From positions 7,260 through 71,259 of the IMG/VR virus record IMGVR_UViG_3300027740_000183: a DNA stretch of 64,000 nt, one strand, 5' to 3'. Within the stretch, counting starts at the first letter, position 1. Each line of letters starts with the position of its first letter. This document shows positions 10,928-57,826 of this stretch, in pieces. The notes under the pieces were generated by a model. That model worked only from the letters and a program-made list of their open reading frames with translations, ran no database searches and was not told where the DNA came from. The position numbers and the translations under genes are program-made. Source of the stretch: a virus.

Positions 10928-11054
10928 TTGTAAAAAGGGATTAAAAGGTATCCCAGCCCCTTATAGACTGGGACATACTATAAACTTTGTTTTTATAATT
11001 TATGTTAAGTTGTAAAGAGATTTAAAGGTATTCCAGTGCCTTACAGATTGGGTA
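10928..11054 (+). repeat. Two tandem leader+CRISPR-like repeat units (repeats at 10939-10974 and 11019-11054)
   Basis: GATTAAAAGGTATCCCAGCCCCTTATAGACTGGGAC and a degenerate copy, each preceded by TTGTAAA; homologous to the array repeat at 46251. Confidence 0.85.
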
Positions 11055-11064
11055 TATTAATTTA

Positions 11065-12567
11065 ATGATTTCAGCTCGTTTAATATATAAAAATTCTGCC
11101 TCTTCCAAAGAGTTTAATTTAACTCGTTCTCAGATTATAGATAGGGGTATTTATAGCGGGGGTGCGTTAACAAATAACCCCGCTTCTTTTATCTTATCAA
11201 TAGCTCCCTTTGTAGCGTCAAGTTACGACGGTATGGTTATAGTAAGTGATGTAACGGAAACACTTACTATTACTGATGGTATAATAAGTTATGTGGTACT
11301 GTATGCTAAATATCAAAACGCTACCATACCGACACTACAACTAGTTGCTCTTGATGAAGCTACTTGGCTTACCTCTGCCAATAAAGACTACTTCATTACT
11401 TTTGCTAAAATAGACTTAACAGTGCCTTCTGGTGGTATACCTACCAGTGCAATCACCTATAACGAATCTGATTATGCGGAAACTCTAGGAAAAAGTCCCA
11501 TAAAGAGATCAGTAGCGAACGCGGCCGCGCTGCCTATAGTACAGAATAGGGAAGGGGATTTGAGAGTAACTACAGATACTGGGCACATCTGGAGCTGGAT
11601 TTCTGGTGCTTGGGTAGATTTGGTAGTACAAACAGCGGCAGCTACAACTTACACAGGTGGTCCCAATTGGGCTGATGGGGTAACAAACCCAGCTACTACT
11701 GTGGAATTACAGCTTGACAAAATTATCACTAATCTGGCAACCGCAGGAGGTTCCGCTAAAATTTATAGCAATGGGATTGCAGGTGCCCCAGATTCTATTG
11801 GTGCAGGTACTCTTTATAGCGCGCTGACTCAATTATTAGGACTTTCTAACATCAGGGGAAGACTTTACGAACAGAATGTTTGGACAGAGCTGAACCAATT
11901 TATAAACAGTAATGCTGGTTTTTATGCCGCATCATTTGAAACTACTAATCCTGCTCCTGCTGTCGGATCCGTTAGAGTGGTTCCACAAGCGGTAGAACCT
12001 ATTATACCTCAGGATGGGGGGCATTATGCTAACAGTGTAACTAAAACTTATAAAATAGCAGAAAACAATGAATGGAGAATAGTTAGTGAGCAGAGAAGTA
12101 GTAGAGTATTTTTGTATCCAATTACAAGTTTAGTGTCTAATTATAATGCTACTGGTTGGTACTTAGAAGATTATTGTGTGTATTGGCACAAAGGTGTGAG
12201 CGCATCTGCGCTTATTTTAACAGCTTCTTTGAACAATTTTATACCCGATGGATGTACCGTAACCAGGGTACGCGCTTATGTTACCCCAGGAGCAATCAGG
12301 GCACCTGGTAATAGGATGCGTTTATGGGGATACAGAAGAGCTAATAGCAGCGAAGTGCCCGCTGTTTTTGGGGGATTTCTTGCTTTTCCAGAAGATGATG
12401 GGACAACAAATCCTCAATGGATTGCTGCAAATGGGTTAACGCAAATTATTGATACTGATGCGTATCATTACCAAGTAGGCGTACGATCTGGGTCAGGTTC
12501 TGGGGGTGATAAGTTATTATCTTTAGAGATTACTTATACAGAGGGTAATTATCTTGCTGTACCCTAA
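11065..12567 (+). CDS. Probable virion structural protein (tail fibre/baseplate-associated)
   Basis: Beta-rich, G/T/A-rich; N-terminus resembles ORF 31075. Confidence 0.5.
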   Translation: MISARLIYKNSASSKEFNLTRSQIIDRGIYSGGALTNNPASFILSIAPFVASSYDGMVIVSDVTETLTITDGIISYVVLYAKYQNATIPTLQLVALDEATWLTSANKDYFITFAKIDLTVPSGGIPTSAITYNESDYAETLGKSPIKRSVANAAALPIVQNREGDLRVTTDTGHIWSWISGAWVDLVVQTAAATTYTGGPNWADGVTNPATTVELQLDKIITNLATAGGSAKIYSNGIAGAPDSIGAGTLYSALTQLLGLSNIRGRLYEQNVWTELNQFINSNAGFYAASFETTNPAPAVGSVRVVPQAVEPIIPQDGGHYANSVTKTYKIAENNEWRIVSEQRSSRVFLYPITSLVSNYNATGWYLEDYCVYWHKGVSASALILTASLNNFIPDGCTVTRVRAYVTPGAIRAPGNRMRLWGYRRANSSEVPAVFGGFLAFPEDDGTTNPQWIAANGLTQIIDTDAYHYQVGVRSGSGSGGDKLLSLEITYTEGNYLAVP

Positions 12568-12595
12568 ACCCTAAAAAATTAAGGATTAAAAATTA

Positions 12596-13687
12596 ATGAC
12601 AACAAAGATTTTAAAGAGATGCAGTGAAGATGCTCGTGTAACATTTATGTTGTTGCGCGAATTGCTCATTAATTGTGTAGGTTATACAGATATTTATACA
12701 GATGATGATGGGTCAGGAGCTTTTACAGCCTCTCAAACAGGAGTAGATGGGGAAACGGATATCAATAACCCCCAAAATTTTGTAGCCGCTTCTGGTGTTT
12801 TTGGTCCAGGTGATGTCGGTAAATACTTGGTTGTTTGTGATCCTTTGTTGCTTCATCATAACAATGTAGGTATTTATAAAATTGTTGGTGCTCCTAATAG
12901 TACCACACTTGCTATTCAAGGCGGATTATATGGTGGTTCTTTTACAACAGGAGTAGGTTTTACTTGGCGTTTAATGGATCCTGCTGGTGTACCTCCTGCC
13001 TTAGCGGGTTTTGATCTCACTTATGTAGTTCAAGCAGTATCGGGAACTAATCCGATATGGCAAGCAGAATTTTACCTTGCTGACGCAGATACTGTCAGTT
13101 TTAGAATTACCGTTGGTCCTGGGGGAGGTTACGATTCCACATTGTTGCCAGGTATTCCTTGGACATTATCTTATACAGATCCTGTTACCATGACTTGTGA
13201 TGTCACTTCTTTATGGACTATATTGGCAAGCGATAGTTACATTAGAATGTATACAGAAGCTGTTGGAGGTGCATCTGTATTTAATTTAGGGTATGTAGGT
13301 GCGTGTATACCAAGAAGATCTGCTGCAGATCAACAATTTGCTGTGTGCTTTGCCGACATTCCTTTAACCGCACTTACTGCTATAAAGTCTGTTGCGTGGG
13401 ATGGGGCTACCAAAGTAGATTATAGTGCTATTTATTATGGGGATCTTTTTCCTTCTAATATATTTACTGCATTACCTCCTTCTCAATTTGATTTAAGAAA
13501 CGATTCCGCACTTATTGCAATGGGTTGCGAAACAGCGGGGTCTTTAGAAGATGATAGAGGTACTTTGAACGGGGTATGCTGGATTAGTGATTCAATACCT
13601 TACAAAACTTTTGTGGATAATAGTAGAAGGGTACTGTCGCTTGGATCTGGAATTTCGATTGAGTGGGACGGCACAGTCGGGCGTTAG
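12596..13687 (+). CDS. Probable virion structural protein
   Basis: Beta-rich; shares GDVGKY.....P...N motif with next ORF. Confidence 0.5.
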   Translation: MTTKILKRCSEDARVTFMLLRELLINCVGYTDIYTDDDGSGAFTASQTGVDGETDINNPQNFVAASGVFGPGDVGKYLVVCDPLLLHHNNVGIYKIVGAPNSTTLAIQGGLYGGSFTTGVGFTWRLMDPAGVPPALAGFDLTYVVQAVSGTNPIWQAEFYLADADTVSFRITVGPGGGYDSTLLPGIPWTLSYTDPVTMTCDVTSLWTILASDSYIRMYTEAVGGASVFNLGYVGACIPRRSAADQQFAVCFADIPLTALTAIKSVAWDGATKVDYSAIYYGDLFPSNIFTALPPSQFDLRNDSALIAMGCETAGSLEDDRGTLNGVCWISDSIPYKTFVDNSRRVLSLGSGISIEWDGTVGR

Positions 13688-13721
13688 AAAAACCTGAAAG
13701 TTTAGTAATTAAGGAAAAATT

Positions 13722-57012: not shown

Positions 57013-57015
57013 TAC

Positions 57016-57246
57016 TTATTTATTTACAAAATCATTAGCCTTCCAGACAGCGTCTTCCATTTCGTGCGCATCTACTATATCAAGCACTTTAGTATTTTTT
57101 ACTAGAAATACAAGATACTTACCACCACGGGGGCTCAAGGAGGTATGTATGTGTGCTTCTTTTTGTGTTGTAGGGTTTTGTATTATTTTTATCGCGCAAT
57201 TAATCATGTTTTTACCCTTTCGTGGTGCCCACATATTTAGTAACAA
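57016..57246 (-). CDS. Hypothetical protein
   Basis: ORF track. Confidence 0.45.
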   Translation of the reverse strand: MLLNMWAPRKGKNMINCAIKIIQNPTTQKEAHIHTSLSPRGGKYLVFLVKNTKVLDIVDAHEMEDAVWKANDFVNK

Positions 57247-57772
57247 GTTCTTTTAGATAATTTTCGTCTATTTTTAACACTTGTTTTACTATCTCCACAG
57301 ATTTGTATTTAGAGATCACCCAAGTAAGTATTGTTTTTATGTTTGCGCCATATTTTGTTTCTATTTCGGCAACTTTTGGGTTATACTCAGCCGCACAGCG
57401 TTCACAGCAGTAGTGGAATATTTTATCATCTAGTTCTATTTGTTTATGCCCCTCTTTTATAAGTTTTTCACAACATAAACATATTTTATCATTATTCAAT
57501 ATCGTAAATTCTTTTTCTAGGGAAGAAAAATTAGGTACTTGTTCTCTTAATATCTTTAACGCAGTGTTAAAATCTTTTTTAATAGTTTTAATAGGTTTAC
57601 CTACCAATAAACTGATATCATATAAGGATAATTGGTTACTGCCTTGTTGTTCCATATAAATAAGACAACAATTGTATATATTTTTATACCTAGTGTGATA
57701 AATGCACCCTTCGTCAATACAATCAGTATTGATGAGTACCTGTGTTTTTGGGCATGTGGTTTTGAAGTTCAT
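57212..57772 (-). CDS. Putative DNA-binding regulator: sigma70 region-4-like HTH plus Cys-rich Zn finger
   Basis: LSLYDISLLVGKPIKTIKKDFNTALKILR; CLCC...YCCERC. Confidence 0.55.
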   Translation of the reverse strand: MNFKTTCPKTQVLINTDCIDEGCIYHTRYKNIYNCCLIYMEQQGSNQLSLYDISLLVGKPIKTIKKDFNTALKILREQVPNFSSLEKEFTILNNDKICLCCEKLIKEGHKQIELDDKIFHYCCERCAAEYNPKVAEIETKYGANIKTILTWVISKYKSVEIVKQVLKIDENYLKELVTKYVGTTKG

Positions 57773-57779
57773 AATGTTT

Positions 57780-57826
57780 TTTGCAGTTTATAAAGTGCTG
57801 AGATATTTCTTAATCATCTTTTACAA
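57780..57826 (-). repeat. Degenerate leader+repeat unit
   Basis: TTGTAAAAGAT GATTAAGAAATATCTCAGCACTTTATAAACTGCAAA; 26/36 identical to the 10939 copy. Confidence 0.65.

Follow-up and report, generated by a model that had tools for sequence, protein, structure and literature searches.

A 36-nt CRISPR-like repeat, GTATAAAAGGTATCCCAACACCTTATAGATTGGGAC, recurs as solitary units behind promoter-like motifs, as a mini-array and as a short array in a 64,000-nt stretch of viral DNA (the window; bases 7260–71259 of the 137,151-bp IMG/VR record IMGVR_UViG_3300027740_000183, with coordinates referring to the window unless marked as record). These elements are best classed with the solitary repeat units and mini-arrays already known from viruses, present here in an unusually multi-copy form carried in 5′ leaders. 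As to function, we tentatively favour, as possible rather than probable, a reading in which the promoter-driven solitary units, the mini-array and the array, all built from one type V-like repeat, yield RNA decoys for a Cas12-family effector. Copy number, placement, orientation, pairing potential, terminators and array geometry were observed directly. CheckV puts the completeness of the record at 35%, and the source phage would therefore measure roughly 390 kb; it is a huge soil phage, with about two thirds of its genome outside the record.

A fuzzy search of the whole record found 15 intact copies of the repeat, nine of them in the window, in the form of one three-repeat array, one two-repeat mini-array and ten solo copies. 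The initial annotation, made from the letters of the window, had listed the array, the mini-array and the isolated copies there, and all are present; the wider scan that it proposed, made on the record, added six intact copies beyond the window, at record 74154, 79666, 96684, 106580, 106947 and 107754, all on the minus strand. Five additional copies lie on two other contigs. The 30-nt core of the repeat, allowing up to three mismatches, gave seven matches in the window and none in 100 shuffles, and a covariance model built from 18 copies recovered exactly the 15 intact copies of the record, with nothing else above 20 bits. The ten solo copies all lie outside open reading frames (ORFs), one of them with the stop codon of the upstream gene inside its first bases. 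In contigs from two DNA runs of the one source soil sample, the assembly graph breaks at repeat copies, and no array variants were seen in these contigs.

At 10928–10974 (+) a promoter-like motif, TTGTAAAAAGG, precedes a solo repeat (10939–10974; five mismatches, 56.8 bits in the covariance model) whose stem pair 18/30 is G-C, as against A-U in the array copies. A second motif with a more diverged repeat follows at 11010–11054 (+; repeat 11019–11054, ten mismatches, 43.5 bits), and this repeat ends 10 nt before ATG 11065 of a 500-aa gene without a family match (11065–12567, +), the first gene of the plus-strand block that contains the portal gene. The unit at 38091–38225 (+) has the layout of a stand-alone small-RNA gene, with a promoter-like motif, a repeat at 38101–38136 (three mismatches, 58.4 bits), a (GGAC)3 stem-loop and an intrinsic terminator; in its predicted fold the repeat hairpin is followed by another hairpin and then by that of the terminator, which has a U-run. 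The mini-array (45099–45218, +) consists of a promoter-like motif, a repeat at 45110–45145, a 37-nt spacer and a repeat at 45183–45218, and ends 9 nt before ATG 45228, with GGAGG in between; the gene behind it (45228–45605, +) encodes 125 aa without a family match. On the minus strand, a promoter-like motif and solo repeat (55883–55929; repeat 55918–55883, five mismatches, 53.6 bits) end 46 nt before a gene for a 227-aa PHP-domain protein (55153–55836, −). The last unit, a promoter-like motif with a decayed repeat (57780–57826, −; repeat 57780–57815), ends 7 nt before ATG 57772 of a 186-aa gene (57212–57772, −). This repeat, which the initial annotation had called degenerate, is present but decayed: it is identical at about 25 of 36 positions as judged by eye, its stems are broken, and with 10.9 bits (E 2.2) it is the weakest item in the set. 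The start-codon distances at these four genes agree with those annotated earlier.

The short array (46201–46431, +) comprises a 3′ repeat remnant, a 36-nt spacer, three identical repeats beginning at 46251, 46324 and 46396 (58.8 bits each) and a (GGAC)n trailer. The remnant, 46201–46214, is made up of only the last 14–15 repeat bases, and the spacers between the full repeats are 37 and 36 nt long, so that the array, with spacers of 36, 37 and 36 nt counting that of the remnant, has the at least three direct repeats of 23–47 nt and the unique spacers of similar length by which a CRISPR array is recognised. The array transcript would end at an intrinsic terminator (46555–46589, +), which leaves about 135 nt to the major capsid gene (46724–47836). 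This geometry, with 36-nt repeats, unique spacers of 36–37 nt and a terminator of its own, supports the favoured reading. The single 37-nt spacer of the mini-array is internally repetitive. Neighbours of the array were considered as cas genes and rejected, the 370-aa gene after the array being that of the major capsid protein. The third array spacer (46360–46395) begins like the flank of the solo copy at 55883 (55882–55860, −; TAATCAGCATT versus TAAAAAATCAGCATT), and the array trailer at 46432–46460 resembles the flank of the solo copy at 38101 (38137–38160). These shared flanks hint at recombinational exchange between solo and array units.

Every solo or first copy in the window has TTGTAAA upstream, and the promoter-like motif TTGTAAAAGA lies 3–7 nt upstream of most solo copies. 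Three of the six intact copies outside the window have no separate upstream TTGTAAA motif, so that the annotated rule of a TTGTAAA before every isolated or first copy holds for the window and breaks down for these three. Across the record, TTGTAAA(A/G)(A/G/T) occurs 66 times, compared with 23 ± 4 in shuffles, an about threefold enrichment. Non-coding DNA, 10% of the record, contains 25 of the 66 occurrences; a repeat follows in 10 of these 25, and the remaining sites lie 5–20 nt before start codons of repeat-free genes, including both TnpB-like genes described below. Judged by these positions, TTGTAAA is a general promoter-like motif and not a private leader of the repeat, as the initial annotation had taken it to be. 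A complete sigma-70-like promoter, made up of TTGACA, 16 nt and TAAAAT, stands at one copy (record 79701). If TAAAAG is read as a −10 element, the transcript would start at about repeat base 4–7; bases 1–3 of the repeat differ between solo and array copies while bases 4–12 are nearly invariant, which fits this predicted start. A separate minus-strand module, hairpin CCCACCCCTAAAGAGGTGGG with a T-rich tail, is repeated at 50182–50224, 54308–54350, 57898–57940 and 58551–58593; the copy at 57898–57940 is followed by ATTGTAAAAAGA, and the module looks like a terminator–promoter junction reused between genes.

In all 14 loci that have a downstream gene, the repeat lies in the sense orientation of that gene (one-sided sign test 6e-5), and not in the random orientation that the initial annotation had named as evidence against itself. 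Most of these orientations simply match the strand block in which the copy lies; the telling case, at locus L019, is a copy on the plus strand, ahead of a gene on that strand, among minus-strand copies. The distance from repeat end to start codon is 7–70 nt, and 7–18 nt in nine of the 14 loci. This closeness is not independent evidence, because promoters of this class sit 5–20 nt from start codons anyway, and a 36-nt unit inserted where the transcript starts would come to lie near the start codon whatever its function. At record 106580–107789 three consecutive operon genes are each preceded by a repeat copy, only the first of which has a promoter, sigma-70-like. Two copies have the make-up of stand-alone small-RNA genes, with promoter, repeat and terminator, namely the one at 38091–38225 and another on a sister contig. 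The genes downstream of the repeats have no common theme: they encode the 500-aa and 125-aa proteins, PHP, ankyrin, 406-aa, ClpX, KTSC and DUF5658 proteins, and a secreted 173-aa protein.

The repeat has two possible helices, formed by bases 7–11/20–24 (5 bp) and 13–18/30–35 (6 bp), which are interleaved and could fold as an H-type pseudoknot whose loops measure 1, 1 and 5 nt. In the 18 copies 91.4% of cells retain the pairing, a share that drops to 54.5% or less once the partner columns are slid, and one stem pair covaries (A-U 8, G-C 5, G-U 3). Conservation ends sharply at the final GGGAC of the repeat. No Rfam family matched the repeat, and no anti-repeat or trans-activating CRISPR RNA (tracrRNA) was found in the record. 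The length of 36 nt, the 3′ hairpin and the GGGAC end are features that we take to be typical of class 2 repeats, and they resemble type V handles. Taken with the 14 of 14 sense orientations and the two small-RNA genes, the 91% pairing supports the dispersed, sense-oriented, promoter-proximal and RNA-level parts of the 5′ untranslated region module that had been proposed for this DNA; binding or cleavage by a Cas protein, and control of the downstream genes by the repeat, are the parts that we infer. In five copies the repeat runs straight on into one to five GGAC units, a continuation of its own last four bases (38137–38148, 46432–46451, record 79665–79658, L018:7387–7390 and L020:6884–6894). 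Slippage and a selected tail are both possible origins, and in two cases no purine-rich stretch other than the tail stands before the start codon.

The initial annotation had found no cas gene in the window. This holds for canonical cas genes, and the window does contain a HEARO RNA (58340–58601, −; 87 bits; Rfam RF02033, the guide RNA of IscB), which overlaps only a 188-aa ORF without a recognisable domain, possibly an IscB remnant. The suggested search for cas12, cas6 and cas1 in the rest of the genome, made on the 137-kb record, found two TnpB/Cas12f-like genes and one IscB. Scans with Pfam, PADLOC, PHROGs and NCBIfam identified no canonical effector among the large proteins, family searches gave no Cas1 or Cas2 in the record, and among its large proteins there was no Cas6-like or Cas12 match apart from the TnpB/Cas12f-like pair. 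The three largest unmatched proteins were considered as hidden effectors, and the leads point to tail proteins.

The two TnpB/Cas12f-like genes lie outside the window on the minus strand, at record 97003–98466 (487 aa; L011:7004–8467) and record 112225–113679 (484 aa; L012:4226–5680), and are 87% identical. Their products (P0001, P0002) match PF07282 and PF01385 and have the RuvC triad, zinc ribbon and fold of the family. Of the D-E-D triad, 30 homologues keep D246 and E329 without exception, and D397 with a conservation of at least 90%; the best Foldseek match of the fold is AsCas12f (E 6.5e-12; TnpB 1.6e-8), and the zinc-ribbon segment has its greatest similarity to CasPhi-3 (E 1.5e-10). The cassettes are compact and sharply bordered, running from 52 nt before the ATG to 15 nt past the stop codon, and a consensus of three sequences predicts that the gene's 3′ end forms a long structure, the last element of which is a 15-bp hairpin lying at the cassette border. 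Each gene stands behind a TTGTAAAAGA motif 5–9 nt from the ATG, a gap that suggests leaderless or near-leaderless mRNAs. A third copy, apparently split near codon 55, is on contig k141_5175639. An unrelated 485-kb phage, LR745208.1, has three copies of the family, in which the homology is confined to the ORF and the 36-nt repeat is missing. No array was found within 10 kb of other family members, which occur in operons and in GC-rich huge phages, and the repeat was likewise not found with the members in those huge phages. The predicted duplex energy of the TnpB-like cassettes and HEARO RNAs with the repeat is −19 to −21 kcal/mol, compared with −23 ± 8 for random windows. The TnpB-like protein looks like a self-contained mobile nuclease and is treated as such, because of its sharp multi-copy cassette, its own 3′ structure, its repeat-free relatives and its no better-than-random pairing with the repeat. 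In LR745208.1 (loci L034–L058) about 30 dispersed sites are formed from a few shared motifs, such as TTCTCGTGCCGATAGGGTATTGAGG and GATTTCGCTAAAAAGTCCCC (for example, 12963–12987 and 15311–15334), and are probably a promoter class of that phage. Two further HEARO RNAs lie in the record on the minus strand: one (RF02033; record 100652–100912, L011:10653–10913; 96.7 bits) stands directly before a 407-aa IscB with RRXRR and HNH domains (L011:9439–10662, −), in the arrangement expected of an IscB–HEARO pair, and the other is at L011:11847–12095 (113 bits). The IscB with its HEARO RNA likewise looks like a mobile cassette sufficient to itself.

Among JGI metagenomes the repeat occurs on two phage contigs only, L018 and L019. 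The latter, k141_5175639, is a 64.6-kb ENA contig on which lie four repeat units, one HEARO RNA and the third copy of the TnpB-like gene. It has no synteny and almost no shared proteins with the record, its tetranucleotide correlation with the record is 0.995 (0.990 between the record's own halves), and one of its repeat flanks is also present in the source sequencing run. The two contigs were considered as independent relatives, a status that was withdrawn in view of the 0.995 correlation, the lack of synteny and the shared sample of k141_5175639. That contig is probably another piece of the same genome, and would therefore add copies and not independent conservation. L018, of which 10 kb correlates with the record at 0.96, is treated in the same way with less certainty. 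No relatives were found in IMG/VR through the TnpB-like protein or through the capsid protein. Three relatives are known, on contigs of 110–340 kb, with capsid proteins 67–71% identical, and the unit, the array and the promoter motif are absent from the 21 kb around the capsid gene in each. The module therefore looks recent and lineage-specific, and the lack of conservation in related phages that the initial annotation had counted against itself is seen in part, in these three stretches.

On the favoured reading, the phage promoter TTGTAAAAGA, acting as a −10-like element, would start transcription at about repeat base 4–7. With its start inside the repeat, each RNA would therefore begin with a ready-made CRISPR RNA (crRNA) handle, two of these RNAs being small RNAs and the rest mRNA leaders. 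The handle, with its 5-bp and 6-bp helices that can interlock as a pseudoknot and its GGGAC end, would be bound by a Cas12-family effector encoded outside the sequenced 137 kb, either by the host or in the missing part of the phage genome. The main effect would be that phage RNAs occupy the effector and compete with other crRNAs, as RNA anti-CRISPRs do, and the array and mini-array would supply true guides. Translation of the gene behind each copy might also be affected, as a secondary outcome.

Besides the array geometry, this reading has in its favour the copy number, the enriched promoter motif, the sense orientation, the retained pairing, the two promoter–repeat–terminator units and the viral precedents described below. 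Several observations weigh against it. Decoys give no reason for the copies between genes inside the operon at record 106580–107789. Most of the solitary repeat units described so far have a matching host repeat, whereas two loosened patterns of this repeat gave no match in 185,579 GTDB species genomes, and three patterns gave none in IMG/VR except one chance match inside a coding region (L017); the identity of at least 90% to a known or host CRISPR repeat by which solitary repeat units are recognised was not found. No spacer could be matched to a protospacer, whether in the record itself, the sister contigs or 50,697 phage records, or in IMG/VR by exact 26-mers. The covariation is weak, its observed score being reached by 84 of 500 shuffles, a control that is not significant because the copies are so alike. 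The assignment to type V, finally, is drawn from the shape of the repeat only.

The main rival is control in cis, which we consider rather unlikely. Here a Cas-type RNA-binding protein of the phage, encoded in the unsequenced part of the genome, would bind or cut the handle on a set of mRNAs; it would hold the next ~20 nt, often the ribosome site and start codon, and set translation, stability or the separation of operon genes, with the array as its interference arm. The start codons 7–18 nt past the repeat in nine of 14 loci speak for such control, as do the three consecutive operon genes, each behind a copy like an array with genes as spacers. About 40% of the intergenic promoter-motif sites carry the repeat, which fits a regulon, and the occurrence of the repeat in this phage lineage only fits a phage-own system better than host mimicry. 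However, there is no candidate protein among the large proteins, with no Cas1, Cas2, Cas12 or Cas6-like match and the three largest unmatched ones resembling tail proteins; the downstream genes share no theme; and the closeness to start codons, seen in this promoter class without the repeat too, follows from insertion at the transcript start. We regard as unlikely the related idea that the crRNA handle is a genome-wide tag placed 5′ of and between messages, such that one Cas12-type protein would arm itself from the array and also bind or cut about ten mRNAs, separating operon genes and gating ribosome sites. If true, this would be the natural counterpart of engineered gene insulation by CRISPR RNases, and a regulon defined by a CRISPR repeat.

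A reading outside CRISPR seems improbable to us. The repeat would be a 5′-terminal RNA pseudoknot that stabilises transcripts, or an operator for a phage RNA-binding protein, and the array-like stretches would have arisen by recombination between copies. The reappearance of solo-copy flanks in the array and the internally repetitive mini-array spacer agree with this, as does the fact that cas genes, protospacers and a host repeat were not found in the searches made. Recombination would not, however, be expected to produce regular unique spacers of 36, 37, 36 and 37 nt between 36-nt repeats, and the length, 3′ hairpin and GGGAC end are typical of class 2 repeats. Use of the repeat RNAs by the 487- and 484-aa TnpB/Cas12f-like proteins as effectors appears very unlikely. 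No other Cas12-family proteins are encoded in the record, their RuvC D-E-D residues are conserved in 30 family members, their zinc ribbon is nearest CasPhi-3 and their fold nearest Cas12f, they share the promoter motif of the repeat units, and the third copy lies on the contig with four repeat units. But the compact multi-copy cassette keeps its sharp borders in LR745208.1, where there is no repeat, and the 15-bp hairpin structure at its 3′ border is as expected of a built-in guide RNA. Other family members lie in operons with no array within 10 kb, no anti-repeat is present, and the duplex energy is no better than for random windows. Proteins of Cas12f/TnpB size, moreover, use guide scaffolds of more than 100 nt. 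The least probable alternative, to which we give hardly any weight, is a DNA-level site for recombination, replication or repressor binding beside promoters. Its position would overlap the predicted transcript start, a frequent place for operators, and the unit is dispersed and sharply bounded. The initial annotation had offered a DNA recombination or binding site as its alternative; this is less likely because of the one compensatory pair and of the strict sense orientation, which holds for a gene on the opposite strand as well. The complementary segments are, in addition, interleaved and do not form a DNA palindrome, some copies stand inside operons without a promoter motif, and the array has its own terminator.

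Three other features of the window were recorded. More than 12 genes of the structural block encode proteins with a common opening peptide, roughly MN..I.KRLLKVA (2428, 15607, 18152, 22571, 23171, 23940, 25710, 26672, 33454, 34496, 34855, 35837, 36130 and 36423, all on the plus strand), which may be a shared N-terminal signal, for example one that targets proteins into the capsid. Opposite to the structural block, at 38577–41646 (−), are genes for two host-like surface proteins, one of 647 aa (Big_5, ice-binding-like) and one of 370 aa with an OmpA domain. An acidic, repeat-rich coding stretch at 3208–3600 is built of GAAGAAG-type units and includes a 148-nt duplication at 99% identity.

If the decoy reading is true, ten decoys fused to phage promoters and gene leaders, together with an array of the same repeat, would make a very high-dose decoy strategy and a takeover of the effector's guide set; if control in cis is true, this would be the first case in nature of a virus that organises the expression of its own genes by a CRISPR handle acting in cis. 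Either way the known uses of CRISPR parts in viruses would be widened, and either would point to an unseen effector with a compact, tracr-free 30-nt handle.

The type V crRNA handles of Cas12a and CasPhi consist of a 36-nt repeat with a 3′ hairpin or pseudoknot and 1–2 nt (..GGGAC) before the spacer, and need no anti-repeat. The predicted handle of the phage repeat has a similar layout; unlike in Cas12a and CasPhi systems, no effector of that size is encoded in the record. OMEGA systems of the TnpB and IscB kinds are represented by the two TnpB/Cas12f-like cassettes and the IscB with its HEARO RNA, but OMEGA guide RNAs are built into their cassettes (as predicted for the TnpB-like ones) and show no complementarity or likeness to the 36-nt repeat. 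crRNA-like regulatory RNAs of the crlRNA and CreTA kinds (bioRxiv 10.1101/2024.12.27.630466, 10.1101/2024.01.05.574328) also combine a lone repeat with a spacer-like tail, and they serve gene control rather than cleavage, as the phage units may. They are host-encoded beside cas genes and act in trans on promoters through partial matches, whereas the phage repeat is carried in cis by the transcript of the gene that it would regulate, and a search for partial self-matches gave none.

Closer likenesses are found among viruses. The arrays of huge phages are compact, mostly lack cas1 and cas2 and often lack interference genes (Al-Shayeb et al. 2020, PMC7162821); the array described here is likewise small and without adaptation genes, and miniature type V relatives lie in the same genomes. 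A repeat scattered before genes in the form of promoter-linked single units is not described there. Viral mini-arrays, which use host Cas proteins against rival viruses (PMC11656645), are similar in being virus-borne, with one to three spacers and no cas genes, and differ in that the present repeat was matched to no host system and its spacers to no target in the searches made. The nearest known elements are the solitary repeat units, or Racr, of Camara-Wilpert et al. 2023 (PMC10651486), single repeats in intergenic viral DNA that lie directly behind promoters with no cas gene nearby and act as dose-dependent RNA anti-CRISPRs. Some of the present units would be small RNAs, like Racr, and one known Racr is co-transcribed with a downstream gene. 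Unlike Racr, which come as one or a few, the present repeat has ten solo copies in 137 kb, was matched by no host repeat among the genomes searched, and is known here from sequence alone. Most of its copies are leaders of ordinary phage genes, some lie between operon genes, and an array and a mini-array accompany them. What sets the phage apart is thus the number of copies, their fusion to ordinary gene leaders, their presence within an operon and the array that exists beside them.

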